A stretch of DNA of 64,000 nt from an uncultured Pseudomonadales bacterium (GTDB lineage Bacteria; Pseudomonadota; Gammaproteobacteria; Pseudomonadales; Azotimanducaceae): positions 793,271-857,270 of the forward strand of contig CALSMJ010000001.1 of assembly GCA_943787425.1 (NCBI GenBank), written 5' to 3'. Under the pieces are notes generated by a model. The model was not told the DNA's origin. It saw nothing but the letters and a program-made list of their open reading frames with translations, and did no database searches. Below, piece by piece: positions 7,116-50,064 of this stretch (within the stretch, counting starts at the first letter, position 1; each line of letters starts with the position of its first letter). The translations under genes and the position numbers were made by a program.

Positions 7116-7130
7116 TTTAGGGCCTCCTTA

Positions 7131-7166
7131 CTACCATCATCACTACCACCATCACTACCACCATCG
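7131..7166. repeat. 3 x 12-bp tandem repeat (ctaccatcatca / ctaccaccatca / ctaccaccatcg) spanning the stop codon of the CorA/ZntB-like gene
   Basis: Read directly from the sequence. The third copy encodes the terminal RWW-stop of the 7155-8099 gene on the minus strand. Confidence 0.85.
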
Positions 7167-8099: not shown

Positions 8100-8213
8100 A
8101 AGCGATCTCCTAAAATCGACCCTAAAATAATTTTATAAGCCATAGTATTTCTCTTTATTTAGCCCTAAGATTCGCGCGATTTTCTAGCCCTTACTCACGC
8201 TATTTGGCCTGCT

Positions 8214-9464: not shown

Positions 9465-9504
9465 AACCGATCGCCTGGCATCATGGCTTCGCTGCCATCG
9501 GCTT

Positions 9505-10410: not shown

Positions 10411-10433
10411 TGGCGTTCTCTCTTTGGGGCGGA

Positions 10434-10874
10434 TTAGGGTTTGGCATTCAATGGGATATGACGCAGCATAGAATGCTCGGCAGAGCTAACCGAAACATTT
10501 AAAGCGGCCAAACTTCGGCGGCCGATTAATACTCGAAAATTCATTGGATCCCTTCGGGTTAAACTAAACTCTGTTTGGATTGTTTGCTCGGCCAGCACCA
10601 TTGTGGACACAATGATAATGCGGCTTTCTTCTTGCCCACCGGAATTACGGACAACGCGCCGATCGAAAACCGGGACCCGGCACAATTGCCCTGCGACGTT
10701 TGATGAGCGAGGCGGCGCTAACCGGAACTCAACCTGCTCAGTGCCGTCCGCCCAAAACGTTTTAATGTCGCGCGCGTCAAGGCTCGATGTCAGCGCGCCG
10801 GTGTCCAGCTTGGCACGAATTGCACCGGGTTGAATATCGGGTAACAGAATGTATTCTTTCCAACCGACAATCAT
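10434..10874 (-). CDS. RimK-associated retropepsin-like aspartic protease (annotated in databases as ATP-dependent zinc protease, DUF785)
   Basis: 146 aa with the aspartic protease triad D-T-G ([12 protein letters not shown]). It lies immediately upstream of, and co-oriented with, rimK. Confidence 0.75.
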
Positions 10875-10969
10875 GACGGCCTCCGAAAAATCGGCGCATC
10901 CTAGAGCTTAAAAGAGGGCAACGCAACGTTTTTATCTAGGCAGATCCGGCCCCCCAAATCCTTCGGCTG

Positions 10970-11902
10970 TTAAGTTTGGAAATTCAGCCGCAAACCCGGG
11001 GTTGGCCACGTGGCTTTGACCAATTTACCGGTCGAGGACAACGTGATGTAGGCGGTCTGAAGACCTTCGCCACCAAAGGCAATATTCGTTGTTAAAACAT
11101 CCGGCATGGCAAAGAATTCAAGGCCACTGCCATCCGGCGAATGAGATGTAATGCCACCTGTTATCAGGGTCGCCACACAAACATGCCCCAAGGCATCGAC
11201 TGCAAGCGAGTCAAACATATGAAAATCGGGTCTTTGAGCCAGCATCCGACGCGGCACGCTGACATCCAGCGCGCCGGGTGACGCAATGGCATAGGCCCAA
11301 AGACGGCCCGTGGGCGTTTCGGCCACATACAACGTTTTTTCATCCGGCGACAAACCAATCCCATTCGGGGCTTGCATTGGGAAGATGACTTCCTCAATTC
11401 GGCTGCCATCCGCTGCGGCATAAAAGACGCCCGTTTGATCCCGGGTTCGCGGCCTCGTTTTGCCATGATCGGTGAACCAAAACCCACCCGCTTGATCGAA
11501 AACGAGATCGTTAGGTCCTTTTAATCGTTCACCCTCGCAGGCCTCATAGAGGGTTTCAACCGCACCCGTCTCCAGATTGACGCGTTCGATCCGCCCACCG
11601 GTATAGTCTGCTGGCTGCGCGCCTGGGAAGACCCGCCCATCGCGAGCTTTATGCCATTCAAAGCCGCCATTGTTACAGATATAACACTGCCCATCTGGCC
11701 CCAATGCTGCGCCATTGGGACCACCGCCAAGTTCTGCGACGATCGATTGCGTGCCATCTTCAGCAACCCGAGTCAGCGTGCCTCGCTGGATTTCAACCAC
11801 CAGCACCGATCCATCACTCAACGCGACCGGGCCCTCTGGAAACTGCAACCCTTCTGTCACAACCGTTACGTTCATATCACGCACTCCTTTCGCCTTAAAC
11901 AT
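10970..11902 (-). CDS. SMP-30/gluconolactonase/LRE-family beta-propeller protein
   Basis: Repeated propeller-like motifs (EGPV..., PNGAALGPDG, PNDLVFD, PNGIGLSPDEKTLYVAET). The start may instead be the internal ATG at 11875. Confidence 0.7.
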   Translation of the reverse strand: MFKAKGVRDMNVTVVTEGLQFPEGPVALSDGSVLVVEIQRGTLTRVAEDGTQSIVAELGGGPNGAALGPDGQCYICNNGGFEWHKARDGRVFPGAQPADYTGGRIERVNLETGAVETLYEACEGERLKGPNDLVFDQAGGFWFTDHGKTRPRTRDQTGVFYAAADGSRIEEVIFPMQAPNGIGLSPDEKTLYVAETPTGRLWAYAIASPGALDVSVPRRMLAQRPDFHMFDSLAVDALGHVCVATLITGGITSHSPDGSGLEFFAMPDVLTTNIAFGGEGLQTAYITLSSTGKLVKATWPTPGLRLNFQT

Positions 11903-34616: not shown

Positions 34617-34925
34617 TCTGATCTACTTTCTAGTCTTCATTCCGTGGCAGAGGCAGGATTACCTGAGCCTGCCGTCTGGCGAATTTTACGCGCTGCCGCC
34701 CCCCACGCGCACCAACGCTTTGTTACAGCAACAATTTAGTGAGCCTTACTCGTAAAAGCAAACCACACTCGCCCAATGCTTTTGTCGACGCGTGCCAACC
34801 GCCAGGACTGCGCTTGCGATTGTCAAAACCATCAGCCGACTCATCCGAAACTACGACAATCATCGTAATTCAGCTTAAATTCAGCTTTAATTCAGCAACA
34901 TTGGCATTTCATCTTGGAGCCCGGC

Positions 34926-35402
34926 ATGCGCCTTGCGTTACTGACACTCATTGGCCTTATTTTGATCAGCGGCTGCCAATCACCCAGTACGCCGCCTGCA
35001 ACGCCGCCCAGCATGCCGAGCCCGTCGTCACCCAGTTCGCCCAGCATGCCGAGCCCGCCATCACCCAGTTCGCCCAGCATGCCAAGCCCGTCATCATCCA
35101 GCTCGCCCAGCATGCCAAGCCCGTCATCCTCCAGCTCGCCCAGCATGCCGAGCCCGTCATCACCCAGTTCGCCCAGCATGCCAAGCCCGTCATCATCCAG
35201 TTCGCCCAGCATGCCAAGCCCGTCATCACCCAGTTCGCCCAGCATGCCAAGCCCGTCATCATCCAGCTCGCCCAGCATGCCGAGCCCGTCATCATCCAGT
35301 TCGCCCAGCATGCCAAGCCCGTCATCATCCAGCTCGCCCAGCATGCCAAGCCCGTCATCATCCAGCTCGCCCAGCATGCCGAGCCCGCCATCCACCCAGT
35401 GA
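34926..35402 (+). CDS. Lipoprotein leader fused to a Ser/Pro-rich repeat (PSMPSPSSPSS x ~12); either a short lipoprotein or the out-of-frame 5' part of the next gene
   Basis: MRLALLTLIGLILISGCQS is a textbook lipoprotein signal with lipobox ISGC. This frame stops at 35400-35402, and that TGA overlaps an ATG in the downstream frame (TGATG). Confidence 0.45.
   Translation: MRLALLTLIGLILISGCQSPSTPPATPPSMPSPSSPSSPSMPSPPSPSSPSMPSPSSSSSPSMPSPSSSSSPSMPSPSSPSSPSMPSPSSSSSPSMPSPSSPSSPSMPSPSSSSSPSMPSPSSSSSPSMPSPSSSSSPSMPSPSSSSSPSMPSPPSTQ
35007..35400. repeat. Tandem array of ~12 copies of a 33-bp unit (cccagcatgccRagcccgtcRtcaYccagYtcg)
   Basis: Counted directly in the sequence. The array is free of stops in three forward and two reverse frames. 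Confidence 0.95.
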
Positions 35403-36661
35403 TGCTGGCAAAAGCCAAGGCTGATGGCGAATCTGGGCCGGCTGGCGCAACCGGTGCACCAGCGGATCCAACTCAAGATCAAACGGGCGCCGCCGGTGAA
35501 AAACTAACGCAGGTCGGGAAGACCTTAACCCGTGCCAGCGGTGATTCAGATACCGCAGAGCGCGGCGAAAGTGATAACAACGACGCCCAGACAGGTTCGG
35601 GGGCTGCAGCTGAACCTTGGGATCCGTTGTTACCCGAACCGCTCGATAATGCCAGTTCCGACGGAGAACGATTTGACGAGTCGCTTGCCGCAGATTCAGC
35701 TGAGTCCTTTGAAAGCAGCGACAGCCAGTCGGGCAGCGCTGCTCAAAATGGCGGCGACGCCGCAGCGTCTGCAGGCCAAGCCGCGTCGATCGATGGCGCG
35801 CAAACCACATCAAGCACCGGGCGCGCCGAAGGCGGACAATCGTCCGAGACCGCGCCATCTGGTAAGGATGGTTCAGAGCCAGGGTCGACACCGATTGCCG
35901 CCGGTGACAACGATCCGGACCGCCAAGCGCTCGCTGACGCGCTGGCTCGCGCTGGAATTAGTCTCACCAAAGCCGGCGAATTACTGAGCCAAAGCGGGTC
36001 CGATGGCGCAAGCAGTGACGACGTCAATTCAGCCCTCAGCGACGCGAGTATTGCGGTTTTAATTCTTGAGCAACAGCTCAATCAAATGGGGTCGGACGGG
36101 GTCGCCGGTGACCGGGTCAGCGAGGCGGCGAGACTGGTCATTTTAGCCAATGAGGCCCTGTCTGAGGCGACCCTTGCGACCGACGGCAGCGCGCCGTTGC
36201 CGACAATCTCTGGACGTTCATCGCAAACAGCCGAAGATCCGCGCATCGCCGAGCTCGATGCCGAACTTGAGCGCTCAATTGTTGTTTTTGAAACCGACAT
36301 TCAGGATGCACGCAACGCGGTCGCCGCCGAATTGGCGGGCAGCGCAACTGACGCCGCGGGCGGCCCCTCAATGGTGGATTTGGCTGAAGGCTTAGCGCAG
36401 TCTGCCCCGGTCAGCGTGACCGAAGGACCAGATGAGGCGTCAGAGGCGCCATCCGCCGAGGTAGGAGCGCCTCAAGGCCGCGCGCCCGGCAAGACCGAAC
36501 AGCAAACTGCTGGCCCCGCACCGATTCCAGAGGATATTCCCAGCCCCCAAGGCGATGACATTGTTGCAAAACAATTACGGGAGGCCGCTGCAGCCGAACA
36601 AGACCCAGCGCTGCGAGCAAAACTCTGGGAAGAATATAAACGGTATAAGCAAGGACTCTGA
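35402..36661 (+). CDS. Acidic low-complexity protein with a short conserved-looking C-terminal helix (DDIVAKQLREAAAAEQDPALRAKLWEEYKRYKQGL)
   Basis: This is the long open frame (track ORF 34739-36661). Sequence upstream of the repeats in this frame looks non-coding and lacks a signal peptide. ATG at 35402 is the first plausible start if the gene is separate. Confidence 0.5.
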   Translation: MLAKAKADGESGPAGATGAPADPTQDQTGAAGEKLTQVGKTLTRASGDSDTAERGESDNNDAQTGSGAAAEPWDPLLPEPLDNASSDGERFDESLAADSAESFESSDSQSGSAAQNGGDAAASAGQAASIDGAQTTSSTGRAEGGQSSETAPSGKDGSEPGSTPIAAGDNDPDRQALADALARAGISLTKAGELLSQSGSDGASSDDVNSALSDASIAVLILEQQLNQMGSDGVAGDRVSEAARLVILANEALSEATLATDGSAPLPTISGRSSQTAEDPRIAELDAELERSIVVFETDIQDARNAVAAELAGSATDAAGGPSMVDLAEGLAQSAPVSVTEGPDEASEAPSAEVGAPQGRAPGKTEQQTAGPAPIPEDIPSPQGDDIVAKQLREAAAAEQDPALRAKLWEEYKRYKQGL

Positions 36662-36664
36662 CCT

Positions 36665-37891
36665 GTGACTGAACCCCGCACTCGACGCGCTCTAACAACC
36701 CTCGTCCAGCTCTGGCTTATCATGACCTTCGCAACCCTTGCGGGCTGCGCGACAACGCAGGTCATAACGGCCAATTCGAAACCACCGGTACAACTGCAGT
36801 CAGTGATTTCAGATGCAGCGCGCGTGGATGTCATGATACTGCCGTTTGCGCCTAACTTGGCATCATTGCCTGAGTCAGATGATGATGACATCCCGGTGTC
36901 GGCCGAGGTGCGCCGAGCCGAGTCCCGTTATCTTGCTTTTCATCTGAAAGATACGCTGGAGCGAACCGGGAACTGGGGCATCGTTCGGGTGGTACCCAGC
37001 GCAGCACGACATCACCCATTACTGGTTTCTGGCAAGATTTTAGCGTCCGATGGCGAGCGTCTGGCTGTTTTGGTTACCGCAACCGATGCCAGCGGGCGCG
37101 TGTGGCTGACGCGGACCTATGAAGACAATGCGAGTAAGTACGCCTATCAATCGATCAAAGAAGACCCCTTTCAAGACCTCTACAACAACATTGCCAATGA
37201 TTTGGTTCTGCAATATCAAGCGCGCGCGGTCGATGACATCCGCAATATCCGGCAAATCGCCGAACTTGCGTTTGCTGCGGATCTGGCGCCTGATGCCTTT
37301 TCTGGCTATCTCACAGAAAATCGGGACGGCACAACCTCGGTGGTCCAAGTACCCGCCGCCGGCGATACTATTCTGCAACGCGTTGCGCGAATTCGGGCGC
37401 AGGATGACCTGCTCGTCGACACCTTAGATGATTACTACTTTAAATTTTACCGGGATGTTAAGCCTTCCTACGATGAATGGCGGTACGCGACCTATGACGA
37501 GGCGGTGAGGCTGCGGCAACTGAACAAACAAGCTCGCAACCGGCTTTTAACGGGCGCCGCGCTCATTGCCGGCGGCATTTACGCCGGCTCTCAAAGCAAC
37601 ACCTGGGCCGCTGACGCGGCTGCAGCAGGCGCCGTCGTCGGTGGTATCGCGGCCGTCAAAGGCGGTCTAGATCGACGCAAGCAAACCGAGATCCATGAGC
37701 AAGCGCTCCAAGAGCTTACCCAATCTTTAGGCCGCGAGATCACGCCGAACGTCCTGGATATCGAAGGCGCAACCGTTGAGCTAACAGGCAGCGCAGAACA
37801 ACAGTACGCCCAATGGCGTTCGATGTTACAAGCACTGTATGAAGCAGAACGAGGTCTAGGCCAAGCGCCCATAACGCCTCAGACCCGATGA
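36665..37891 (+). CDS. Hypothetical lipoprotein with a Gly/Ala-rich C-terminal segment
   Basis: GTG start 3 nt after the previous stop. Lipobox FATLAGC. Glycine-zipper-like LLTGAALIAGGIYAG...AAGAVVGGIAAVKGG. Confidence 0.65.
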   Translation: MTEPRTRRALTTLVQLWLIMTFATLAGCATTQVITANSKPPVQLQSVISDAARVDVMILPFAPNLASLPESDDDDIPVSAEVRRAESRYLAFHLKDTLERTGNWGIVRVVPSAARHHPLLVSGKILASDGERLAVLVTATDASGRVWLTRTYEDNASKYAYQSIKEDPFQDLYNNIANDLVLQYQARAVDDIRNIRQIAELAFAADLAPDAFSGYLTENRDGTTSVVQVPAAGDTILQRVARIRAQDDLLVDTLDDYYFKFYRDVKPSYDEWRYATYDEAVRLRQLNKQARNRLLTGAALIAGGIYAGSQSNTWAADAAAAGAVVGGIAAVKGGLDRRKQTEIHEQALQELTQSLGREITPNVLDIEGATVELTGSAEQQYAQWRSMLQALYEAERGLGQAPITPQTR

Positions 37892-37901
37892 TTAAACGAT
37901 C

Positions 37902-40154
37902 ATGACAACGATCCAACCCGGCACGCTGCTCGCTGATCGCTTTAGGGTTATTGCGGCCGTGCCAACACCGCCGGCTCAGCACCCACGATTTCGGGCGACG
38001 AATTTATCAACTGCCAGTGACGTCATGATCACCGTCGTGCCCCGCTCGGCCGGTGATCTAGCAAGCCTTGCGGCCATCAGCGATCGACTGAAAAAGCTCA
38101 GCCACCCCGATATTCAGGCGCATATCGGTTTTTGGGAAGATGCTCATGCAGGCTACCTTGTTGACGCGCCGCCCGTAACGCCGGCGAGCGACCCGCTGAG
38201 CAAACCACTCAAAGCTGCCCAACTCAGGCGCTTGGTCGCCGCGCTGGGCTATGCCGAGGCGCTGGGCTTTCATCAATCGGGGTTTGATCTGGCCTGGCTC
38301 ACGCCAACGGATCAGCAGGGCTTTATGATTCAACACCTGGGCTGGCCACGCTGGGCACTGACCTCAGCGCCACACAATCATCCCGAGGCAACTGGGCTTG
38401 TGAACTTTGGCGATTGGGCCTATCAATTTTGTACCAACGCACCCTGGCAGGGCCTTGACCAGTTGCAGGCGCAACCACCGTTGCCGGCAGGCTTAACGCC
38501 CCTCATTACGGCGGTGCGACAAGGCACGACCCGCTCCTTTGGCGAGCTTTTGACTTTGATGGACACCGGCGAGGCAGACGCGGCATCCGGTTTGGTCGGG
38601 ACCGGCCCTTTGCAGGCTGCAAACTTTGAGATCGCAAGCCCGGCAGCATCCGCGCCCGCTGCCGCCGTCGTGTCATCAGAATCATCGGCCACGCTGTCTG
38701 ATCGCACACCCGGCGCAGTGCTTGCCAAATCCGGCTGGGAGCCCAAAACCCTGTTAACCGGTTTTGGACTCGTTATTCTTGCCGGCTTTGTCTTTTGGGT
38801 GCTGCCAGATTTAGTCCGCACTCAGAACCAGGCTCAACCCCAACTGAACCCAACCCCGGCCACCGCATCCGAGCCTGCTGGCGTCACGAAGCAGGCGCCC
38901 ATCGCCGACGCCAAAGCCAAAATCCTGGCAGAACAGGCTGCCGAGGTGGCCGAAACGTTTCTGCGGAAACTCATCACACTAGAAGATTTGGGCCTTGCGC
39001 TTTGGGATCCAACCGCCCTCGCTCAAATCAATCAAGCAGCCATGGCAGCTGATGACGCCTTTCGTGCGGGCGACGCGCAAGCCGCGCTTGCGCGCTATAC
39101 TCAGCTACTGGCCAGCGTTACCGCACTTGATGCAGGCCTGCCAGATCGTCGCGCCGAGAATCTGACCCAAGCTCAAAACGCCTTGTCAGACAACAACAGC
39201 GTCGATGCGCTCAAGTTCTGGGCAATTGCGGCCCGATTGAATCCGCAGAAGACCGACATCCAGACAACTTGGCAAGCCGTTCAAAAAATTCCCGCCATTG
39301 AAGCCCTCATGAGCGAAGCCGACCTGGCAGAACGTGCTGGCAAAATCGAAGCTGCCGAGGACATCTTGCGCGAGGCGACTGCGCTGTTCCCGAACTGGAC
39401 GCCCGCACGGGTTGCCTATGAGAGAATGCAACAGGCCGTGCAGCAAAAACAGTTTCAGACCAGCATGACGCTCGGGTTTGCGGCCCTTGCAGAGGAATCC
39501 TATGAATCGGCAATCAGCGCATTTGAGCGAGCCGCCCGCATCGACCCAACGGCGAGCGCCGCCCGAGACGGTCTCGAGCAAGTTCGCCAAGCGCAGCTCA
39601 GACAACAAATCAAAGGCTTTTTTGATGAGGCCCAACAGGCCGAAGCCGCCGGTAACTGGCGCAACGCGCAAACTGCCTATGAGACTGCCCGCACGCTGGC
39701 GCCCAACTTAAGCGATCTTACGGTTCGCATCGAGGCCATGGACACCCGGATCGAGCTCGCTGAAGCATTGACCCAGATCCTTGCGGACCCAGCAAGACTC
39801 CTCGCCGATGCCGAATTCAAGAACGCCAGAGATCTTGCCATTACGATCAGTCAATTACCCCCACCCGTTGGCGATCTGCAAGCACGCCTGCCCATTCTCA
39901 CGCGTATGCTGTCTCATGCGCGTCGCGAGCTGACGCTGACGCTGACCTCGGATGCGCTAACCACCGTCACGGTCCTGCGGTTAGGCAAAGAGGGTCGTTT
40001 GGGCCAAATAACGCAAACCAAGCTGACCTTGTTTCCGGGTCGTTATGTCGTCACCGGATCCAGGACCGGCTATAAAGATGTGCGCCATGAGCTGACCCTT
40101 ACGGGCGAGACCCTCAATCATGCCCTAAACGTCGTTTGCGATGAGCCAATCTAA
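37902..40154 (+). CDS. Membrane protein: N-terminal degenerate Ser/Thr kinase-like domain (pseudokinase), one TM helix, periplasmic TPR-like repeats, C-terminal PEGA-like domain
   Basis: A kinase-like N-lobe is present (LLADRFRVIAAV..., LSHPDIQAHIGFWEDAHAGYLVDAPP). It lacks the GxGxxG loop, the VAIK lysine (VMITVV) and HRDLKPxN (replaced by ALGFHQSGFDLAWL). TM helix LLTGFGLVILAGFVFWVL. C-terminal LFPGRYVVTGSRTGYKDVRHELTL. Confidence 0.6.
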   Translation: MTTIQPGTLLADRFRVIAAVPTPPAQHPRFRATNLSTASDVMITVVPRSAGDLASLAAISDRLKKLSHPDIQAHIGFWEDAHAGYLVDAPPVTPASDPLSKPLKAAQLRRLVAALGYAEALGFHQSGFDLAWLTPTDQQGFMIQHLGWPRWALTSAPHNHPEATGLVNFGDWAYQFCTNAPWQGLDQLQAQPPLPAGLTPLITAVRQGTTRSFGELLTLMDTGEADAASGLVGTGPLQAANFEIASPAASAPAAAVVSSESSATLSDRTPGAVLAKSGWEPKTLLTGFGLVILAGFVFWVLPDLVRTQNQAQPQLNPTPATASEPAGVTKQAPIADAKAKILAEQAAEVAETFLRKLITLEDLGLALWDPTALAQINQAAMAADDAFRAGDAQAALARYTQLLASVTALDAGLPDRRAENLTQAQNALSDNNSVDALKFWAIAARLNPQKTDIQTTWQAVQKIPAIEALMSEADLAERAGKIEAAEDILREATALFPNWTPARVAYERMQQAVQQKQFQTSMTLGFAALAEESYESAISAFERAARIDPTASAARDGLEQVRQAQLRQQIKGFFDEAQQAEAAGNWRNAQTAYETARTLAPNLSDLTVRIEAMDTRIELAEALTQILADPARLLADAEFKNARDLAITISQLPPPVGDLQARLPILTRMLSHARRELTLTLTSDALTTVTVLRLGKEGRLGQITQTKLTLFPGRYVVTGSRTGYKDVRHELTLTGETLNHALNVVCDEPI

Positions 40155-42244
40155 TGCCACCCATTGACCCCTTGCAAGACACCCTCGAGCCCACGCCTTT
40201 TGAGGCGCCAAAACAGGCAGTTGATATCAAAGCCCGACGACTCAGCCCGAGGCGCGTGGTGACCCTTTTGCTTGCCGCTTTCATTGCGATGACCGCTTGG
40301 CACCTGTTTACCGCCAAGGCCGTCTTAATCGTCTTCACGCCGCCAGCTGAATCCGAATCCGTCTCAGGTTGGTTAACCCTACCGCTGGGCGAACGCTATC
40401 TGGTCCGGCCCGGTGATCTCACAGTTGAGGCCGACGCCAAAGGCTACTACCCGATCGACGCGCGTTTAACCGTATCGTTCGATCCTGATCAGCGTTTTGC
40501 ACTGGCTTTCGAAAAACTGCCCGGGCACCTTCGCCTCACCACCGGCGATATACCCGCTGAGGTCGAGATCGATGGCGAGTCCGTTGGCACCACCCCGCTC
40601 ACGGTTTCAGATCTGAGCGCCGGCGAGCACCGCGTGTCGATCACTGCCGACTGGTATGTTCCGATCCAAACCACCGTGGAGATCCTTGGCTTGGACCAGT
40701 CTCAGGATTTGGCGTTGGCCTTGACACCAGCTTGGGGCACTGTGAGCCTATCCAGCCAACCCACCGAGGCGCGCCTTATTGCCGATGGGGAAGATCTCGG
40801 GCCGCTGCCGACAACGGTAAGATTATTAGAGGGTACGCGAACGCTTTTGATCTCAAAAGCGGGGTATCAATCTCAGCGCCTCGATTTAGCGATCAAACGT
40901 GGTACGTCCATCACGGTGCCCGAAGTCACCCTGGCACCTGCGAACGGCGCGGTGACCCTGAACAGCGCACCCGCCGGCGCTTTGGTCACAGCAAATGGGG
41001 TGTATCTAGGGGTCACCCCGCTTCAGCATTCGTTGTCCCCAAATCGCACCTATGATTTTCTAGTCAGCAAGTCTGGCTTTGAACCGGTGACCCGGTCATT
41101 GCAGCTTGCCCCCACTGAAACGGTCACGCTGAACCTAACCCTTGCGCCCCGATTGGGAACCGTAACCTTTGATATTGCTCCGAAGCAGGCATCGATTCGC
41201 ATCAACGGGGTACTGCAAAGCGCCAAAAATACCACGATGCGGCTGCCCACAACGCCCCAAACCATTGAAATCAGTCAGGACGGCTTCGCAACGATCACAC
41301 AAACCATCACCCCGGATGCTGATTTCCCCAAAACCCTGAAGATCAATCTGCTGACCCTGGCAGAAGCGGAACTGGCTCAATTCCCAGAGACGATCGAGGT
41401 CAAGGGCGGCTATCGCTTGCAGCGCATTCTACCGGCGACCATCGAACTCGGCGCGGCGCGGCGAGACCGCGGCGGACGCAGCAATGAAATACAGCGCTTG
41501 ATCACCCTCACTCAGCCTTATTACCTGGGCACCACCGAAGTCACCAATGCCCAATATCAGGCCTTTGATGCCGGCCATAATCCCGGGGTTTTAGGACGAA
41601 CCCTGCTCACAGCGCAGGAGCGACCGGTCGTTGGCGTCAGCTGGGATCAGGCAGTGGCCTTCTGCAACTGGTTGAGCGACCAAGAAGGTTTGCCGCGGGC
41701 CTATACCTCGGTTAACGGGCATTATGAGCTGATCACACCCAGAACCTTAGGGTATCGTTTGCCGACAGAAGCTGAGTGGTCTCGAGCCGGACGGTATGCC
41801 GATATTGCGGCCGGTGCGCAAGGCGACATCACCAGCCGTTCCCGCTTTGCCTGGGGTGATGATCTGCCACCGCCAAGCGATTTCGCCAATTTAGCCGATG
41901 AAACCGCAACGGGCTTCGCGCCCAATATCATCCCGAACTTTCGAGATCGCTTTCGAGGGCCAGCACCAGCAGGACATTTCAAGGCCAATGCCTTGGGCCT
42001 GTTTGATCTAACCGGCAATGTTTCTGAGTGGGTGCATGACCGATTTAGCACCAACCGCACGCCCAGCGCCGCGACCGATTGGACGGGGCCTAACGAGGGC
42101 GCTGTTCGGGTTATTCGCGGCTCGAGTTATCTGTCCGGCAGCTTTAGCACCTTGCGCTGGGCTTATCGGGATTCAGGCCTTGAAGGCCGGCAAGACGTCG
42201 GCTTCCGGCTGGCAAAAAATGCCGCCCCAGGCGCCGTCGAATGA
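40154..42244 (+). CDS. Membrane-anchored protein with ~5 PEGA repeats and a C-terminal FGE-sulfatase (SUMF1-like) domain lacking the catalytic cysteines
   Basis: TAATG overlap with the previous gene. PEGA-like units include VEIDGESVGTTPL...GEHRVSITADWY, ARLIADGEDLGPLP...ISKAGYQ and VTANGVYLGVTPL...VSKSGFEP. FGE domain: YYLGTTEVTNAQYQAF...RPVVGVSWDQAVAFCNWLS...GYRLPTEAEWSRAGR...GNVSEWVHD...VIRGSSYLSGSFSTLRWAYRD. Confidence 0.8.
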   Translation: MPPIDPLQDTLEPTPFEAPKQAVDIKARRLSPRRVVTLLLAAFIAMTAWHLFTAKAVLIVFTPPAESESVSGWLTLPLGERYLVRPGDLTVEADAKGYYPIDARLTVSFDPDQRFALAFEKLPGHLRLTTGDIPAEVEIDGESVGTTPLTVSDLSAGEHRVSITADWYVPIQTTVEILGLDQSQDLALALTPAWGTVSLSSQPTEARLIADGEDLGPLPTTVRLLEGTRTLLISKAGYQSQRLDLAIKRGTSITVPEVTLAPANGAVTLNSAPAGALVTANGVYLGVTPLQHSLSPNRTYDFLVSKSGFEPVTRSLQLAPTETVTLNLTLAPRLGTVTFDIAPKQASIRINGVLQSAKNTTMRLPTTPQTIEISQDGFATITQTITPDADFPKTLKINLLTLAEAELAQFPETIEVKGGYRLQRILPATIELGAARRDRGGRSNEIQRLITLTQPYYLGTTEVTNAQYQAFDAGHNPGVLGRTLLTAQERPVVGVSWDQAVAFCNWLSDQEGLPRAYTSVNGHYELITPRTLGYRLPTEAEWSRAGRYADIAAGAQGDITSRSRFAWGDDLPPPSDFANLADETATGFAPNIIPNFRDRFRGPAPAGHFKANALGLFDLTGNVSEWVHDRFSTNRTPSAATDWTGPNEGAVRVIRGSSYLSGSFSTLRWAYRDSGLEGRQDVGFRLAKNAAPGAVE

Positions 42245-42300
42245 TGGCGATGGCGATGCGGTCTGATAAGCTTAAATCGATTCAATGTCGAGCCTCTTGC

Positions 42301-42609
42301 ATGCGTGCCAACCTTACAATGCTGTTTGCTGTTTGCGTTCTTCTGCCGGCCCAAGTTGTCGCCGCGAGTCCAGCGACATCAAGCCCTGCCAGTGCAGCGC
42401 CCAACCCAGCGCCGGCTGCTGACCCCACTCCGCAAGCCTTAAACACAACCGCTGCGCCCAGCCAGTCCAGCGCGCTGGACGCCGCGCAACAGCCGGTGCC
42501 TGACGACGCGACGCTAACCGCGCCTGGCTTGGGCCGCGCTTTTGAGGCCTTTCAGCCCAGTGAGGCAATCAGTGCTGACAACGCCGTGCCCTTTCCAACC
42601 AATATCTAA
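42301..42609 (+). CDS. Small secreted Ala/Pro/Ser-rich protein
   Basis: Signal peptide MRANLTMLFAVCVLLPAQVVAA, then a low-complexity region. ATG at 42301 is preferred to 42241. Confidence 0.5.
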   Translation: MRANLTMLFAVCVLLPAQVVAASPATSSPASAAPNPAPAADPTPQALNTTAAPSQSSALDAAQQPVPDDATLTAPGLGRAFEAFQPSEAISADNAVPFPTNI

Positions 42610-42624
42610 GGCCTTAACCTATTC

Positions 42625-43416
42625 ATGAAACAATTTAGCTCAGATTTTATCTATCAATTGATGTCTCTCATCGTGGCGATTTTATTGGTTCACGCAATTT
42701 ACGTTGCCGTCATTCGGCCAAACGCCAATAGCCTTTTAGAAATTCAAGCCGAGCTTATCAATGCTGACCCCAGTTACGTGCCGGAGCGCAGCGCTTATAT
42801 CATTGTAAAAGACCTCGAGCAGGAGGCCTGCTTTATCTTAATGCTATGGGCCATGGCACTTATGGGCATCAAGGCACGCGACAATCATCGAGAACGGGCC
42901 CTGTTTGAAATAGACCTTTTACCCCGCAATCAATCCAACAGTATTTTGCCTGAAGATACGCGGGACTATGCTCGCCCAATAGAAGCCTTAAGCGCGGACG
43001 CGCAACAGCGCCTGTTGCCGCGCGCGTTACTGGCCGCGCTGCACCGCTTTCGCGCCACGGGCAATATTCAGGATGTTGCGCACACCATTCGTGCCACCTG
43101 CGAGAGCGAAAGCGAGCACTTGGATTCGGAACTATCAATGATTCGCTACATCGCCTGGGCAATTCCTTCGATTGGCTTTTTAGGCACCGTTCGCGGCATT
43201 GGACAAGCCCTTGGTCAAGCGCATCAAGCCGCACAAGGCGACATTGCTGGCGTCACCCAAAGCTTGGGCGTGGCCTTTAATTCGACCTTCGTCGCCCTGT
43301 TAATCAGTATTCTCATCATGTTCTTGATGCATCAATTGCAATTGGCGCAAGAGCGCACCACCCAAGATGCTGAGCAATATTGTGATAATCGCCTTTTACG
43401 TTACCTGCAGGTTTAG
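42625..43416 (+). CDS. MotA/TolQ/ExbB-family proton channel protein
   Basis: C-terminal signature region IRYIAWAIPSIGFLGTVRGIGQALG...LGVAFNSTFVALLISILIMFL matches the MotA_ExbB pattern (LGLLGTVxG ... AL.tT..GL). Additional N-terminal TM helices are present. Confidence 0.8.
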   Translation: MKQFSSDFIYQLMSLIVAILLVHAIYVAVIRPNANSLLEIQAELINADPSYVPERSAYIIVKDLEQEACFILMLWAMALMGIKARDNHRERALFEIDLLPRNQSNSILPEDTRDYARPIEALSADAQQRLLPRALLAALHRFRATGNIQDVAHTIRATCESESEHLDSELSMIRYIAWAIPSIGFLGTVRGIGQALGQAHQAAQGDIAGVTQSLGVAFNSTFVALLISILIMFLMHQLQLAQERTTQDAEQYCDNRLLRYLQV

Positions 43417-43419
43417 ACC

Positions 43420-44691
43420 GTGACCCTTGCATTTCTTGAACTCAATGATCTTGAGTTACGGCTCTGGCAAGCCGATCACGCGGTTGTCTCAGAACCCGGT
43501 TGGGCCTTGCTGACGGAGCCGCCGAAGGTTGGCCAACAGGCATTGGATCAGGCCAGACTGCAACCTCGATTGGCCAATTGTCAGTTTTGGCACACCCTCA
43601 GTACGGATCCTATGCCCGGCGCGACCCCGATCGCTCGACATCATGCGGACTTGGCCTATTTACAACTGACCGCCTTTAAACATCTCGCACCGAGCAGCGA
43701 GTTTGTTGTCAGCGTGCCCGGACATTTTGATCGAGCTGATCTGAGCTTACTGCTGGGGCTGATGGATGCTGCAAGCATCACCGTCAAAGCGCTGATTGAC
43801 CCTGGGGTACTCCTTGCCAGCAGGACCCCTAGCACGACGCCTAACCTGCTCTATCTGGATGTTGGTCTGCATGCCGTGACGATAACGGTAATTCAACAAG
43901 GCGCACAGTCGCAGCGCAGCAGCTGCCGCATCGCCCATAACGCGGGCTATCTGAACCTCATTGACCGCCTGGCCAATTATGCCGCCAGTGCGCTGGTTCG
44001 AAAATCTCGGTTTGATCCACTGCAACATGCCAGCACCGAGCAACAACTCTTTCAGCAGCTCTTGCAACCGAATCATCCCCTTGCCAGTTTGGGCCAAGGC
44101 CTGATTAGCTTGCATCATGAGGGCGTCCAATATGACGTGCAGCTGCCTGAGACCGATCTGCGCGCAGCCGCCGCGGAGCTTGTACCCGATGTTGTGAAAG
44201 CGATTCAGGCCGCCTCAAACGGCCCCGCTGAGGTTTTGTTGAGCCATCGCGCCCAGCGGCTCCCAGGACTCATCGACTCCCTATCCCTGATCCCAGGCCT
44301 TGTGACCCAGCGGCTCACGAGCGCCAGCCTGCTCGAGGCTTTTACCGCTTTGGCGCCAGAACTGACGGCCAACAGCACGCACAATCAACTCATCTACAGT
44401 TTGGCCAACCCGGCGCAAGCAACCGCGACCGCCGCTGAGCAATTAAGCACCGGCCACTCGATTACGCATATTGTGCAGCAGGGCATCGCCGTCGAGATCA
44501 AAGCCTTTTCGGAAACCACCGCAGACGACTTTGGCCTGATCCTTGACACGGTAACCGGTCAATGGCAGCTGACGCCAGGCAACCTGAGCATTGCCCTCAA
44601 TGGGCAATCCGTGACGGAACCGTGTTTGCTGAAAGCGGGCGATGCCATTTTAGCGGGTAACCAAACCTTTCTATTCATCCAGGTGCGATAA
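43420..44691 (+). CDS. Cytoplasmic protein with a degenerate Hsp70/actin-like ATPase fold and a possible FHA-like C-terminus
   Basis: GTG start 3 nt after the channel gene. [40 protein letters not shown] parallels Hsp70 [55 protein letters not shown] parallels DLGGGTFDVSI, but the phosphate-binding glycines and aspartates are lost. The C-terminus is ...[32 protein letters not shown]. Confidence 0.45.
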   Translation: [423 protein letters not shown]

Positions 44692-44696
44692 GCCGC

Positions 44697-45785
44697 GTGG
44701 CCAAACGACGCGAAACGAATATTTTCAGCCTGTCTTTTTTAGATATCATGTCGTGCGGTTTTGGCGCGGTGATCCTAGTTTACATCACCATCAATCATGG
44801 CACCCTCTCAAGCGGTATCCAGACCGATCCCGAACGATTCGCCGAGGTCAAAAAGATCGAAATCGAAATTCTTGCAGAGCAGGAAAACCAAGTCATCCTG
44901 CGCAACAGCCTTGCGCTTGTAGACGATGCGGTTCTAACAACGGAACAAAGCATCCGAGACAAACTCAAAGCCATAGAGGCCCTAACCCAGCAGTTGCTCG
45001 AAGCTCAAAGCGCGCAGAGCCTGGATACCGACGGGATTGAAGCGCTTAAAACAGCGTTGGTCAAACTCCAGGCCGAGCGCGACACCCTGACCCTCAGTGT
45101 CGCCGAGGCCGAAGGCAATGATCTGCGAGCGATGGTCGGCGAAGGCGATCGCCAGTATCTAACCGGCTTGAACTTGGGCGGCCAGCATATTTTGCTGTTA
45201 TTTGATGTGTCGGGCAGCATGCTCGATGAAACCCTTGTTAATATCATTCGAAGGCGAAATCTGCCTGAAGCCGAGCAACGCGCGTCGAAAAAATGGCAAC
45301 GCGGCTTGCGCACCGTGGATTGGATCACTGCCAATCTGCCTAGGGATGTTCAATTTCAGATTATTGCATTTTCGAGCACCGCGCGGAGCGCCCTGCCCGA
45401 GACCAATGGTGAGTGGCTTCAAACCAGCGACACCGAAACCTTGGACGCCAGTCTGGCGGCGCTACAAGCGCTCACCCCCGGCGGCGGCAGCAACCTGCAT
45501 GCGGCGTTTACCGCCGCTGCCGCCCTTGACCCACAACCGGACAATATTTTCTTGATCACGGACGGCCTACCCACTCAAGGCGCAATGCCAGTAAAAGCAG
45601 GTCTTGTCTCCGCCAAAGACCGCTTAAACCTTTTTCAAAACGCCATGAGCGTGGTCAACCTTTCAACGCCCATCAACGTCATTTTATTCCCCATGGAAGG
45701 TGACCCCATTGCCAGTCCCTCTTTTTGGCGGCTGGCACAAATGACGGGCGGCGCATTCTTGTCACCCGCAAGGGACTGGCCATGA
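44697..45785 (+). CDS. ExbD/TolR-like single-pass anchor + coiled coil + vWA (MIDAS) domain protein
   Basis: N-terminus NIFSLSFLDIMSCGFGAVILVYIT has an Asp at the start of the TM helix, as in ExbD/TolR. A ~110-aa heptad-like region follows. MIDAS residues are DVSGS, GGGSN and ITDG. Confidence 0.8.
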   Translation: MAKRRETNIFSLSFLDIMSCGFGAVILVYITINHGTLSSGIQTDPERFAEVKKIEIEILAEQENQVILRNSLALVDDAVLTTEQSIRDKLKAIEALTQQLLEAQSAQSLDTDGIEALKTALVKLQAERDTLTLSVAEAEGNDLRAMVGEGDRQYLTGLNLGGQHILLLFDVSGSMLDETLVNIIRRRNLPEAEQRASKKWQRGLRTVDWITANLPRDVQFQIIAFSSTARSALPETNGEWLQTSDTETLDASLAALQALTPGGGSNLHAAFTAAAALDPQPDNIFLITDGLPTQGAMPVKAGLVSAKDRLNLFQNAMSVVNLSTPINVILFPMEGDPIASPSFWRLAQMTGGAFLSPARDWP

Positions 45786-46783
45786 GACGCAAGCTCCGCG
45801 AAGTTGAAGGCATGAGCCTCTCTTTTTTAGATGTCATCAGCTGCGGCTTTGGCGCCTTAATACTATTGTTGGTGCTCACCAAAGTTTATGACCCAGTGGT
45901 CTTTGATCCATCGATAACCGATCTCGACGGTTATCTCAAGGAGCTCGAGGAAACCCTGGCGACGCTGAAAGGTGAGACCCGAGTGCTCAATCGAAACCTG
46001 CTGCGTCGCGAAGACCTCAAAACGGATCAAGTGGCTCAACTGACGCGCATTCAAAGTGAGCTCGCAAGCCTTGAAAGCACCAACCGCCAGACGCAATTGG
46101 AGGCCGAGGCCCAAGCGGCCATTCAAGCAAAATTGGCCGACGCCAAACAGTCCCTCACCGAAGAGATGCAGGCGCTACTCAAGGGCTATCAAAAATCAAT
46201 CGATGATACCGTGATCGGCGGGATCCCAGTGGACAGCGAATACGTCATATTCATCATCGACACCTCGGGCAGCATGTTCAGTTACGCCTGGCCCATGGTG
46301 GTACAGAAGCTGGCGGAGACCTTGGAGGTCTATCCCAATTTGAAAGGCATCCAAGTGATGAATGATATGGGCCAGTACATGTTCGCCCAGTACGCAGGCC
46401 AATGGATCCCGGACACCCCAGCTCGGCGGCAGGCGATTATTAATCGGCTGCGGGACTGGAATGTTTTCAGCAACTCAAGCCCAGTTGAAGGTATCACCAA
46501 GGCCATTGCGACCTTCTATCGACCAGGCCGAAAAATCTCACTCTATGTATTTGGCGATGAATTTACCGGGCGCTCGATTCAGCAGGTCGTCGACACGGTC
46601 GACCGAATTAATCGCCGGGACGAGCAAGGCAACCGGCTGGTCCGGATTCATGGGGTGGGCTTCCCTGTACAGTTCGCAAATCCGCCACAGTATCAGGAGA
46701 CTGGCATCAAATTCGCCATTCTAATGCGCACCTTGTGTGCAGCCAATGACGGCACCTTTGTGGCCTTAAACCGGTTTCGTTGA
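45782..46783 (+). CDS. Second ExbD/TolR-like anchor + coiled coil + vWA domain protein (paralog of the previous gene)
   Basis: ATGA overlap with the previous gene. N-terminus MSLSFLDVISCGFGALILLLVL, then a coiled-coil region. MIDAS-like DTSGS, SNSSP and FGDEF. Confidence 0.8.
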   Translation: MRRKLREVEGMSLSFLDVISCGFGALILLLVLTKVYDPVVFDPSITDLDGYLKELEETLATLKGETRVLNRNLLRREDLKTDQVAQLTRIQSELASLESTNRQTQLEAEAQAAIQAKLADAKQSLTEEMQALLKGYQKSIDDTVIGGIPVDSEYVIFIIDTSGSMFSYAWPMVVQKLAETLEVYPNLKGIQVMNDMGQYMFAQYAGQWIPDTPARRQAIINRLRDWNVFSNSSPVEGITKAIATFYRPGRKISLYVFGDEFTGRSIQQVVDTVDRINRRDEQGNRLVRIHGVGFPVQFANPPQYQETGIKFAILMRTLCAANDGTFVALNRFR

Positions 46784-46795
46784 CCACGCGCGCAA

Positions 46796-47686
46796 TCAAC
46801 CGCGCTCACCCGGCGCAACCGGCGGCGATTTCGGCTTAGACCCCGCAGGCACATCGCGCAATTGCACGGATGGCGCATCCAGCCTCGCCTCAAGCCGCTC
46901 CAAGATCGCTCGCACGTCTTGAATTTCATCGTGCAGGTTGCGCAAGGAAGAACGCTCCGGGTTATCGGTATCGGCCTTGGCCTGCTCTTCCTCAAGCACA
47001 TTCACCACAATCCCGATCACCATGTTTAAAAACGCAAAGGTGGTTAGGAAAATAAAACTGAGATAAAAGATCCAACTAAGCGGATAGAACGCCATGGTTT
47101 CGTACATGACGTCGGTCCAATCTTCGAACGTCATCACCCGAAACAGGGTCAGCATCGACACTGCAATATTGCCCCAAAGCGTTGGATTGATCTTTTCAAA
47201 GAACAAACTGCCGGTTGCGGCATAGATATAAAAAATAATAAAAATCAGCGCGGCAACATAGCCTAACCTGGGTAACGCCTGAAGCAGAGAGTTGAGTAAA
47301 ATTCGGAGTTCCGGAATGATGCTGATCATGCGCAGCACCCGAAAAACACGGATCAGTCGTGCCACCAACGCCATATCGGTGTCATCAATCGGAATCAAGC
47401 TCACCGCGACGATCAAGGTGTCAAAAATGTTCCAGCCATTTTTAAAGAAATCTCGCTTGCGCGACTCCCCCAAGAACCGCACCGAGATTTCCACAACAAA
47501 AATGAGCGTGATCAGCAGATCAAGCCCATCGATCACCAAGATCATCCATTCAGGAATCGCATAGGTCTTCACGCCGACCAACAAGGCCGACGCAATAATA
47601 ATGATGATAATGAAGGCTTCAAAGGCGCGATGACTGCGCAGGCGGTCCAGCTTTGCTTGCCAGCTGTGGGGCGATAACTCGGTCAT
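46796..47686 (-). CDS. Bacterial voltage-gated cation channel (BacNav/NaChBac-like, single 6-TM domain)
   Basis: S4 with Arg at every third position (ARLIRVFRVLRMISIIPELR). Pore helix and filter TLFRVMTFEDWTDVMYE. C-terminal coiled-coil-like tail. Confidence 0.8.
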   Translation of the reverse strand: MTELSPHSWQAKLDRLRSHRAFEAFIIIIIIASALLVGVKTYAIPEWMILVIDGLDLLITLIFVVEISVRFLGESRKRDFFKNGWNIFDTLIVAVSLIPIDDTDMALVARLIRVFRVLRMISIIPELRILLNSLLQALPRLGYVAALIFIIFYIYAATGSLFFEKINPTLWGNIAVSMLTLFRVMTFEDWTDVMYETMAFYPLSWIFYLSFIFLTTFAFLNMVIGIVVNVLEEEQAKADTDNPERSSLRNLHDEIQDVRAILERLEARLDAPSVQLRDVPAGSKPKSPPVAPGERG

Positions 47687-48651: not shown

Positions 48652-50064
48652 CTAGTAGCGCACCCGCGCGGTGTACGCAATGCGTTGTTTGGACTGCGGC
48701 GCAAGATCGAGCTCGATCGATAATGATTGTCCGACTTGATTCACCATCTCCGGCGTACTGGCGAGTAAGGTCAACTCCCCATTGAAGTCTTCCTGCAGAC
48801 GCACTGCGGCCTCTGTCTTACCCGTATTTTCCAACAGCAGATCCAAGGTGACTTCATACAGCCGGTCGTTAATCCTGCGAAAGTCCGTGGTCGTTCTCGT
48901 GAGTCGCACATCGAAGGCGCGACCCAGATACACCTCAAACGGTGCGCCCGACGGGGATTGGGTCAATTGATCCTCACCCATCAAGATGGGTTGACCCGTT
49001 GGGCTGCGTTCAAACACGCGGACCAGGCCCGCTGCGATCGGATGATTGCTGGACGGCCCGGTCTCTTGCGGTGTGACCGACAAGAACGCTGGAACCGACT
49101 GCGGCTGCACGGCACCCGATGGATAGCGCTGAACCAATGACCGACTTCTAAACACCCGCTTTGCTGGCACCACCCAGGGGTCTTCGAGCGCGACCTGCAG
49201 GCTGCGGCCCGCGCCCAGCGTCACGCGCTCTGGCAGCCGCCACTGGTATTGCAGCCCAGCAGGCGCGGCAGCTGCCGCAGGGCCCCGATCCATGGCGGCG
49301 CTTCGCAGCATTGGCATATCCATCTCAGGCTGAAAATTAGGACTCGCAGCGGTACTTAACTGCCCTGCGACCACAGTAACACCGGCCTTCTCAATGGCTA
49401 ACTGCGTGGCATTTGATAAGACCGCGGACGAATAAATTCGGACCTCGCGCACCTTGGGGTCATAGACCATTTCATAATGGGCCGACCAGCTGAGCCCGGG
49501 TGCAACGTAGACGAGATGACCGGAGAAAGACCCGGCATCTTCAATTGTTACGGCAAGCGACGGGTTCACTGCAAGGCCAATGTCCGGAAAACGAAGTTGA
49601 TCGAAAGCAACCGTTTGCAGGCCCTGCGACGTCGAAACTAAAATCGGCTGCAGCGCCTTTAGAAGGCCAGACGCATACCGCATTGCACCGGTATCGCCGA
49701 CCGGGCTCAGAAACTCAACGCGTTGTCCCAAGTAAGCCTGCAGGGTCTGCTGAGGCGCTCCAAGCCATGGGGTGATCTCCAGCTGCCGCACTCGATTACC
49801 TGCGTTCGGCATCACATAGACCCCAGCAAGCGTGGTCGTTTCCGCAATCGGCACCTCAACAATGCCGCCCGCCTGAACCGAGGTCTTCGGCAGCACACCG
49901 CTCACCAAGCCTTGGCGCGCATAAAGGGTCAGCTCAGGGTTTGCCAGGACGACCCGCTCTCTGGCCTCAAGGTGCTGCCCCGGCGCGGACAGCACAACCA
50001 GCCAGACCAGAGCCGCCCTAAAGTTGATCACCCAACGCCTGAATACTGTGTCTAATCCTGTCAT
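48652..50064 (-). CDS. Secreted DUF4139-like protein (MuiA-like family)
   Basis: Signal peptide. HLVYVAPGLSWSAHYEMVYD...AVLSNATQLAIEKAGVTVVAGQLS matches my recollection of the DUF4139 core (glsW.a.Y ... l.LvAG). Confidence 0.55.
   Translation of the reverse strand: MTGLDTVFRRWVINFRAALVWLVVLSAPGQHLEARERVVLANPELTLYARQGLVSGVLPKTSVQAGGIVEVPIAETTTLAGVYVMPNAGNRVRQLEITPWLGAPQQTLQAYLGQRVEFLSPVGDTGAMRYASGLLKALQPILVSTSQGLQTVAFDQLRFPDIGLAVNPSLAVTIEDAGSFSGHLVYVAPGLSWSAHYEMVYDPKVREVRIYSSAVLSNATQLAIEKAGVTVVAGQLSTAASPNFQPEMDMPMLRSAAMDRGPAAAAAPAGLQYQWRLPERVTLGAGRSLQVALEDPWVVPAKRVFRSRSLVQRYPSGAVQPQSVPAFLSVTPQETGPSSNHPIAAGLVRVFERSPTGQPILMGEDQLTQSPSGAPFEVYLGRAFDVRLTRTTTDFRRINDRLYEVTLDLLLENTGKTEAAVRLQEDFNGELTLLASTPEMVNQVGQSLSIELDLAPQSKQRIAYTARVRY

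Follow-up and report, generated by a model that had tools for sequence, protein, structure and literature searches.

Architecture of the vWA-A/vWA-B pair

We analyzed a window of 64,000 nucleotides from the genome of an uncultured Pseudomonadales bacterium of the Azotimanducaceae (assembly GCA_943787425.1, contig CALSMJ010000001.1, positions 793,271 to 857,270 of the forward strand; the window means this whole stretch, and its features are numbered from its first letter). The subject of this study is a pair of overlapping genes, here called vWA-A and vWA-B, whose products join an Asp-bearing membrane anchor through a helical stalk to a vWA domain (von Willebrand factor A). vWA-A (44697–45785, + strand) starts with GTG and encodes 362 residues, comprising a basic N-terminus, a transmembrane (TM) helix with Asp16 (D16), a heptad-rich stalk, and a vWA domain with a metal-ion-dependent adhesion site (MIDAS). 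vWA-B (45782–46783, + strand) starts with ATG and encodes 333 residues, and is a paralogue of vWA-A with the same architecture. The two genes overlap in an ATGA at 45782, which combines the stop codon of vWA-A with the start codon of vWA-B. The start codons are supported because the lengths of the homologues agree (362–364 residues for vWA-A and 333–335 residues for vWA-B), and a longer open reading frame (ORF) for vWA-B from a TTG at 45725, as given by the ORF finder, was rejected as an upstream extension. The pair forms the end of a nine-gene operon on the + strand, which runs from a gene we call g1 to vWA-B with short or overlapping junctions and includes a channel gene, g6.

In a BLASTP comparison, vWA-A and vWA-B showed 24% identity over their first 174 residues (E 3e-8), and the profiles of the two families, made from other species, were aligned by hhalign over 312 columns with a probability of 99.8% (E 3.8e-29). 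Because the profiles align across these 312 columns, the two proteins are full-length paralogues with more than a common anchor between them, bearing out the overlapping paralogous pair that the original prediction, made from the window without database searches, had proposed. Between species, vWA-B is better conserved than vWA-A.

For the conservation of the anchor, we used a vWA-A family set of 118 representatives with ≤50% mutual identity, 105 of which have a complete N-terminus. D16, whose GAT codon lies at 44742–44744 (+ strand) and which is located close to the end of the TM helix that faces the cytoplasm, is invariant in all 105, and its surrounding [SA]FLD is kept in 81/81 vWA-A and 77/77 vWA-B orthologues from the genomes of other species, so the Asp that had been singled out in the anchor helix is indeed conserved in the homologues. 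In vWA-B the sequence carries D17, encoded by GAT at 45830–45832 (+ strand). The conserved anchor can be written as R/K-rich - x - SLSFLD(V/I)(M/I)xCGFGAxxL, with xSLSFLDxMSCGFGAVIL as the consensus, and a six-frame translation of the window contains the motif SFLD-x3-CGFG in exactly two places, one in vWA-A and one in vWA-B. The N-termini of both proteins are basic, and therefore the predicted topology is N-in with a periplasmic C-terminus, as in ExbD, TolR, and MotB. From the Asp it is about 16 residues to where the anchor helix ends on the periplasmic side, as in TolR and ExbD of E. coli.

The anchor is followed by a heptad-rich helical stalk, which spans residues about 39–150 of vWA-A (44811–45146, + strand) and about 41–145 of vWA-B (45902–46216, + strand). 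The a/d heptad positions are enriched in Leu, Ile, Val, and Met compared with composition shuffles (z of 3.6 for vWA-A, whose score was reached by 0 of 500 shuffles, and 2.7 for vWA-B), and a search of the PDB with the vWA-B family profile returned mostly coiled-coil proteins, matched to residues 40–140. Both results agree with the ~110-residue heptad-rich stretch that had been read in each protein. A low-confidence AlphaFold2 (AF2) model presents residues 48–137 of vWA-B as a single helix, and the distance from the Asp to the MIDAS is tightly fixed across species, at 146–156 residues in vWA-A and 141–144 residues in vWA-B.

The anchor and the stalk bear on a reading in which the two proteins sit on the outside of the channel pentamer like TonB or TolA and belong to the first of the vWA-transducer families described in a recent study (Mol Biol Evol 2025;42:msaf138; PMC12204202). 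Like the members of that family, vWA-A and vWA-B cross the membrane once and carry their vWA domain at the C-terminus, after an extended linker. However, the defining features of the family are an SHLS motif whose His is essential, a linker that is Pro-rich and disordered, and tolR-like pairs in adjacent position (PMC12204202), whereas the anchor motif here has no His, the helical linker of about 110 residues contains 1 Pro, and tolR-like genes are missing from the operon. We regard this placement as very improbable.

The vWA domain of vWA-A matches Pfam VWA_2 (E 9e-9) and VWA_3, both of which reach the gathering score. The vWA domain of vWA-B is divergent and has no Pfam match; it was assigned from the hhalign alignment of its family to that of vWA-A, which continues through the whole domain. 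A phmmer search of the PDB with vWA-B gave weak RalF matches alone, and the search with the family profile mentioned above also gave a weak match to the integrin alpha-M I-domain (E 0.15). When the low-confidence model of vWA-B was submitted to Foldseek, the vWA domains of TFIIH p44, Rpn10, CMG2, complement C2, and alpha2delta were found, mixed with other Rossmann-like folds of the G6PDH type.

The DxSxS motif of the MIDAS is D170-V-S-G-S174 in vWA-A (45204–45218, + strand), with S265 and D289 as the other MIDAS residues, and D160-T-S-G-S164 in vWA-B (46259–46273, + strand), with S232 in SNSSP and D259 in GDE. Among the 118 vWA-A representatives, position 170 is Asp in 110 and Glu in 7, S172 and D289 are kept in 118/118, and S174 is kept in 113/118; position 265 is Ser in the window copy and Thr in most homologues. 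In vWA-B, D160, S162, S164, S230-N-S-S-P234, and G258-D259 are each kept in ≥95% of the 77 orthologues. The MIDAS of both proteins is thus complete and conserved, and metal binding is predicted for both, in keeping with the MIDAS vWA domains originally assigned to the two proteins. Apart from this, the DxSxS loop of vWA-A is followed by an insertion of ~20 residues, within residues 177–210 (window about 45225–45326), which is absent from vWA-B and contains the invariant K199 as well as W200 and W209, each kept in ≥115 of the 118 representatives. This insertion could be a paralogue-specific contact surface.

Channel gene and distribution of the pair

The pair had been described as following an ExbB-like channel. 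Such a gene, g6 (42625–43416, + strand), does lie upstream, but not directly, since g7 (43420–44691, + strand) stands between. The product of g6 is a three-TM channel subunit of the MotA/TolQ/ExbB type that matches Pfam MotA_ExbB (E 8.6e-16, 58.3 bits vs a cutoff of 22.9). Its hydrophobic segments are located at about residues 6–34 and 212–242, and a conserved TM2 motif at about 175–197. A profile made from 12 orthologues found E. coli TolQ (8odt_A) in the PDB with an E-value of 0.011, and the alignment places P181 on P138, T188 on T145, and T221 on T178 of TolQ. The three residues are invariant in the 12-sequence alignment, as are the segments G187-T188-V189 and N219-S220-T221 to which the two Thr residues belong.

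The conventional partner of such a channel was searched for among the nine operon proteins, and none of them matched the ExbD, MotB, or OmpA models. The full-length vWA-A and vWA-B proteins match no Pfam ExbD model and contain no ExbD/TolR periplasmic domain. Neither of the two matches OmpA or MotB_plug in Pfam, and neither has a Pfam or NCBIfam match to GldM-type domains.

To describe the distribution of the system, we scanned one genome per species and took 81 loci for gene-presence counts, in which each gene was counted only at loci with enough flank. At least 592 species have a relative. The channel gene g6 is present in 67 of 68 testable loci, confirming the co-occurrence of the pair with a MotA/ExbB-type gene. 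After two cross-matches to vWA-A (loci L018 and L030) were removed, vWA-B was found adjacent after vWA-A in 74/76 loci, and the junction overlaps by 4 or 1 nucleotides in 49 of the 74, which suggests coupled synthesis of the two proteins and fits a heterodimer. The best match among the matches listed is a Pseudomonadales metagenome-assembled genome (MAG) from the Fram Strait, with 92% identity for vWA-A and 98% for vWA-B. The other relatives among these matches are mostly Pseudomonadales (Halieaceae, Azotimanducaceae, Pseudohongiellaceae, and Cellvibrionaceae), and Lysobacterales, Desulfuromonadales, Myxococcales, and one acidobacterial MAG were also among them. Out of 1.84 billion cluster representatives at 50% identity, 265 match vWA-A below E 1e-30, and members of the family abound in marine and soil Gammaproteobacteria. 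Among the carriers available from culture collections are Congregibacter variabilis, Pseudohalioglobus sediminis, Kineobactrum sediminis, and Biformimicrobium ophioploci.

Predicted role of the pair in a proton motor

Flagella, TonB-dependent uptake, the maintenance of the outer membrane, gliding, type 9 secretion, and Zorya defence all draw their power from rotary 5:2 proton motors, and the identity of the two-helix partner defines the job of each motor. If the partner were a MIDAS vWA pair, proton flow would be coupled to a grip between proteins that depends on metal. We consider it fairly probable that vWA-A and vWA-B form the central two-helix plug of a 5:2 proton motor whose pentamer is made of g6. 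The two proteins would form a heterodimer with both N-terminal helices in the pore of the g6 pentamer, giving a proton-driven motor of presumed 5:2 stoichiometry in which the vWA pair replaces the usual ExbD/TolR/MotB partner. Protonation and deprotonation of D16 and D17, which would face T188 and T221 of g6, may drive rotation of the dimer, the presumed moving part, relative to the pentamer, and the Asp pair together with the Thr ring would be the proton path. The parallel helical stalk of ~100 residues (roughly 13–15 nm) would reach into the periplasm, where the MIDAS of the two vWA heads may bind an acidic residue of a partner, the presumed ligand, and proton flow would thereby be coupled to force or torque on the bound partner. 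The likeliest partners are periplasm-exposed proteins of the same operon, namely g4, the part of g3 with the TPR repeats, and the two lipoproteins (g1 and g2), while g7 and the kinase-like domain of g3 on the cytoplasmic side would probably act as regulators or as a readout of the motor.

The directly observed features behind this model are the two architectures, the full-length paralogy, the invariance of the Asp and MIDAS residues, the g6 threonines, the co-occurrence with the channel, and the absence of an ExbD-type gene from the operon. The predicted insertion of the helices into the pore leans on published AlphaFold3 (AF3) models of a described relative. The study cited above describes, besides its TonB/TolA-like family, TM-tethered vWA proteins that have an Asp-bearing transpore helix, are encoded beside tolQ-like genes with no tolR/exbD nearby, and occur ‘predominantly in heterologous pairs’, with Idiomarina loihiensis as the exemplar, and in its AF3 models the helices and the Asp pair lie inside the pentamer next to a Thr ring (PMC12204202). 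The hypothesis of a motor with a vWA pair is therefore a rediscovery of a prediction published in 2025 (msaf138). The original prediction had known of no characterised example; none exists at the bench, but the same architecture and mechanism had already been proposed in msaf138. The vWA-pair/channel system is not described in the eLife 2020 paper on vWA conflict systems.

Several points weigh against the placement of the two helices in the g6 pore. Motors with a vWA pair are so far computational predictions only. A profile of 29 anchors searched against PDB sequences gave a chance match to NDUFB4 alone, a Pfam scan of the N-terminal anchor segments at E ≤ 10 gave nothing relevant, and hhalign aligned the anchors with E. 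coli TolR, ExbD, and MotB over 13 columns with a probability of 2.4%. This short alignment sets the anchor Asp on D23 of TolR, which aligns with D25 of ExbD and D32 of MotB. With no hidden Markov model (HMM) or PDB match and an hhalign probability of this size, we do not claim homology of the anchor to ExbD/TolR/MotB. The resemblance to ExbD/TolR noted at first stands for the Asp position and the topology pattern but has no HMM match behind it, and the likeness is a pattern in the sequence, with the N-in topology, the basic N-terminus, and the depth of the Asp in common. The AF2 monomer of vWA-B, which contains a beta-alpha-beta core, has a predicted local distance difference test (pLDDT) score of 57, falling below 50 in the TM region. 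The pore chemistry of g6 differs from that of TolQ because E173 of TolQ aligns to V216 of g6. A tblastn search with E. coli TolR, ExbD, and MotB found nothing in the window or in the 81 loci with ±10 kb flanks, but the test is insensitive, and this negative result for ExbD-like genes is weak because E. coli TolQ also missed g6. Two variant loci also count here. L018 (locus positions 6285–8861 and 9086–11089) has neither g7 nor vWA-B, and its channel gene lies directly before a lone vWA-A; L030 (locus positions 8670–11089) has g7 and a lone vWA-A with no adjacent channel gene. Because both have vWA-A without vWA-B, the heterodimer is not obligatory everywhere, and a homodimeric version may exist.

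The missing anchor homology and the L030 locus, where vWA-A and g7 occur with no adjacent channel gene, are also in line with a reading in which vWA-A and vWA-B are ordinary periplasmic vWA proteins anchored in the inner membrane, co-regulated with the channel and located outside it. The Asp would then have another role, for example in the pairing of helices, and g6 would either act alone or have an ExbD/TolR-type partner encoded by an unlinked gene. Against this, a charge in the TM helix that is invariant in two paralogue families and in hundreds of species speaks for a specific membrane role, the synteny with g6 is near-perfect, and no ExbD-like gene is found in the operon. In addition, the whole SFLD-x3-CGFGA motif is conserved, indicating a tightly packed environment of the helix. 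We therefore hold the ordinary-anchor explanation to be improbable and keep the two-helix plug of the g6 pentamer as our working model.

Other proteins of the operon

The nine-gene operon is conserved in about 80 sampled species, and its other members are candidates for the partners and regulators of the predicted motor. g4 (40154–42244, + strand), present in 58/59 testable loci, encodes an N-terminal TM anchor, four PEGA domains, and a domain of the formylglycine-generating enzyme (FGE)-sulfatase type (Pfam PEGA, E 1e-38; FGE-sulfatase, E 3e-36). Its FGE-sulfatase domain is of the same domain family as GldK/PorK, and a partial NCBIfam GldK match (E 1e-23) is sub-threshold, with 84 bits against a cutoff of 350. 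True formylglycine-generating enzymes have a catalytic Cys pair in the C-terminal segment of this domain. The corresponding segment of g4, RGSSYLSGSFSTLRWAYRD, has no cysteines. Judging from this segment, the domain, like that of GldK/PorK, probably has no catalytic function. The L018 orthologue of g4, also a PEGA/FGE-sulfatase protein, has an N-terminal FHA-like domain by inspection; if so, the FHA module would be a recurring part of the system.

g7, present in 66/73 testable loci, encodes a cytoplasmic protein of 423 residues with no Pfam or NCBIfam match. Its AF2 model (pLDDT 90) consists of a nucleotide-binding domain (NBD) of the Hsp70/DnaK type followed by a small C-terminal beta-domain, and Foldseek matched it to the NBDs of DnaK, Hsp70, and BiP at E about 1e-15. 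The beta-domain was read as FHA-like, and three distant g7 homologues carry Pfam FHA.

g3 (37902–40154, + strand; 50/52 testable loci) encodes a cytoplasmic kinase-like domain, a TM helix at residues 282–307, and periplasmic TPR repeats, the last matched by Pfam TPR. The g3 orthologue in locus L001 matches Pkinase, whereas the window copy has no Pkinase match and, by eye, has no Gly-loop, VAIK, HRD, or DFG motif. The kinase-like domain is thus probably a pseudokinase in the lineage of the window.

g4 and g7 bear on a reading in which the complex is the same and the mechanics are reversed. The vWA dimer would be fixed like MotB, with its heads clamped to a cell-wall-associated partner such as g4, and the g6 pentamer would turn around the dimer and pass its output to the cytoplasm via g7, as MotA does on FliG. 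The PEGA domains of g4 would suit such a clamp, as they are described as peptidoglycan-associating (PMC7159879). The position of the cytoplasmic g7 between the channel gene and the pair in those 66 loci would suit an output on that side, as would the g6 loop between TM1 and TM2 of ~135 residues, which would be cytoplasmic if the TolQ topology applies. However, g7 is missing in 7 loci that retain g6, vWA-A, and vWA-B. We think it unlikely that the dimer is the fixed part, and the model with a rotating vWA dimer remains the one we prefer.

The remaining genes encode two lipoproteins and one small protein. g2 (36665–37891, + strand; 48/50 testable loci) is a 408-residue lipoprotein with an LAGC lipobox and a Gly/Ala-rich hydrophobic segment near its C-terminus, and the library scans found no known domain or family in it. 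g5 (42241–42609, + strand) is a small, poorly conserved Pro/Ala-rich protein with a hydrophobic N-terminal segment that is signal-peptide-like by inspection. The product of g1 (34914–36661, + strand) is a lipoprotein whose linker consists of Pro/Ser-rich repeats and whose acidic C-terminal part is conserved, being present in 46/49 testable loci. Tandem Repeats Finder (TRF) detected a 33-bp tandem repeat of 12 copies inside g1 (35005–35400, + strand), which in the lipoprotein frame encodes a (PSMPSPSSPSS)n linker. The signal-peptide frame of the window copy (34914–35402) ends right after the repeats and is out of register with the C-terminal part, which lies in another frame (ORF 34739–36661). 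In the relative with 92% identity (L002), g1 is an intact lipoprotein ORF of 534 residues with 7 repeat copies vs 12 in the window, and its repeat encodes a Pro/Ser-rich linker just after the lipoprotein signal peptide. The frame break may result from a frameshift, from misassembly of the repeat, or from on/off switching mediated by the repeat.

A wider reading takes the whole nine-gene operon as one self-contained, unnamed, proton-driven trans-envelope machine, which we put forward tentatively as a possibility that is more doubtful than the motor itself. A TolQ-like pentamer would turn a heterodimeric vWA shaft that might conceivably engage the PEGA/FGE-sulfatase partner and the lipoproteins. 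The contact between the shaft and the PEGA/FGE protein could, by a speculative analogy, be likened to GldM engaging the GldK ring, and gating or readout in the cytoplasm might, just as tentatively, be provided by the pseudokinase and the Hsp70-like/FHA protein. If true, this machine would add a sixth or seventh class to the 5:2 motors known as Mot, Ton, Tol, Agl/Glt, Gld/Por, and Zor, and would have a signalling module built in.

Outside the operon, a voltage-gated-type ion-transport protein (Pfam Ion_trans, E 4.5e-44) is encoded directly downstream at 46796–47686 on the − strand, and a DUF4139 protein further downstream at 48652–50064 on the − strand. A DUF4139-like gene adjoins the operon in five loci (L001, L002, L003, L005, and L007), and the Ion_trans channel gene recurs by the operon only in L002 and L003. 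A role of the locus in anti-phage defence was considered and found unsupported, PADLOC having given weak ZorA-type (MotA-like) and coiled-coil matches alone.

Comparison with known systems

With the ExbB-ExbD and TolQ-TolR systems, the locus shares the Pfam family of the channel, whose pore Thr and Pro residues are kept in g6, and a partner with a basic N-terminus, a single N-in TM helix, and the Asp at a depth of ~16 residues from the periplasmic end. It differs in that the vWA pair is without the ExbD/TolR periplasmic domain, a third subunit of the TonB/TolA type is missing, a paralogue pair takes the place of a homodimer, and the output is a MIDAS vWA domain on a long helical stalk. MotA-MotB and PomA-PomB likewise combine a proton channel with a single-pass partner that bears an Asp and is anchored in the periplasm, but the vWA pair has neither a plug nor an OmpA-like peptidoglycan-binding domain, flagellar genes are not found nearby, and g6 is without the large cytoplasmic domain of MotA.

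The GldL-GldM and PorL-PorM motors of gliding and type 9 secretion have a MotA-like pentamer around two single-pass helices, which extend as a long shaft into the periplasm. The predicted pentamer-shaft layout here is similar, and a protein with the FGE-sulfatase fold belongs to the same system (g4 in the window). vWA-A and vWA-B are nevertheless unlike the GldM/PorM domains, no genes of the type 9 secretion system are found nearby, and g4 differs from GldK/PorK in being a TM-anchored protein with PEGA domains, no lipoprotein, and far below the GldK cutoff. We take the parallel to GldLM-GldK as a lead only.

PpkA of Pseudomonas aeruginosa has a vWA domain, and TagR of this species is FGE-like. 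The threonine-phosphorylation pathway of the H1 type VI secretion system (H1-T6SS), which senses the state of the envelope, has TagQ/TagR/PpkA/Fha1 as its components (PMC10482370). The likeness to the operon would lie in a comparable set of domains distributed over the envelope, comprising a Ser/Thr-kinase-like membrane protein, a periplasmic vWA domain, a periplasmic FGE-sulfatase-type protein, an outer-membrane-type lipoprotein, and a cytoplasmic FHA protein. The differences are that there are no T6SS genes here and that the proton channel present here is absent there, and this resemblance, too, can serve only as a lead.

The closest counterpart is the vWA motors of PMC12204202, with the likeness judged by their described features. 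Both have an N-terminal helix with a conserved Asp, a C-terminal vWA domain, a heterologous gene pair, tolQ-like synteny with no tolR/exbD/motB nearby, and a Thr ring in the channel, and both occur mostly in Proteobacteria. They differ in that the text of that paper leaves the wider operon unmentioned (the pseudokinase-TPR protein, the PEGA/FGE-sulfatase protein, the Hsp70-like/FHA protein, and the lipoproteins), with a kinase, a sulfatase, or an FHA domain mentioned nowhere in it, and our literature search found no description of this wider operon. The feature in the window is real and was read correctly, and the proposed mechanism is plausible. The window offers no new principle beyond the 2025 prediction, and the conserved nine-gene context is a modest addition. 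What this context adds is a fixed set of candidate partners, consisting of the PEGA/FGE-sulfatase, pseudokinase-TPR, and Hsp70-like/FHA proteins and the lipoproteins, and this set, together with the carriers available in culture collections, makes the function of the vWA-pair motors testable.

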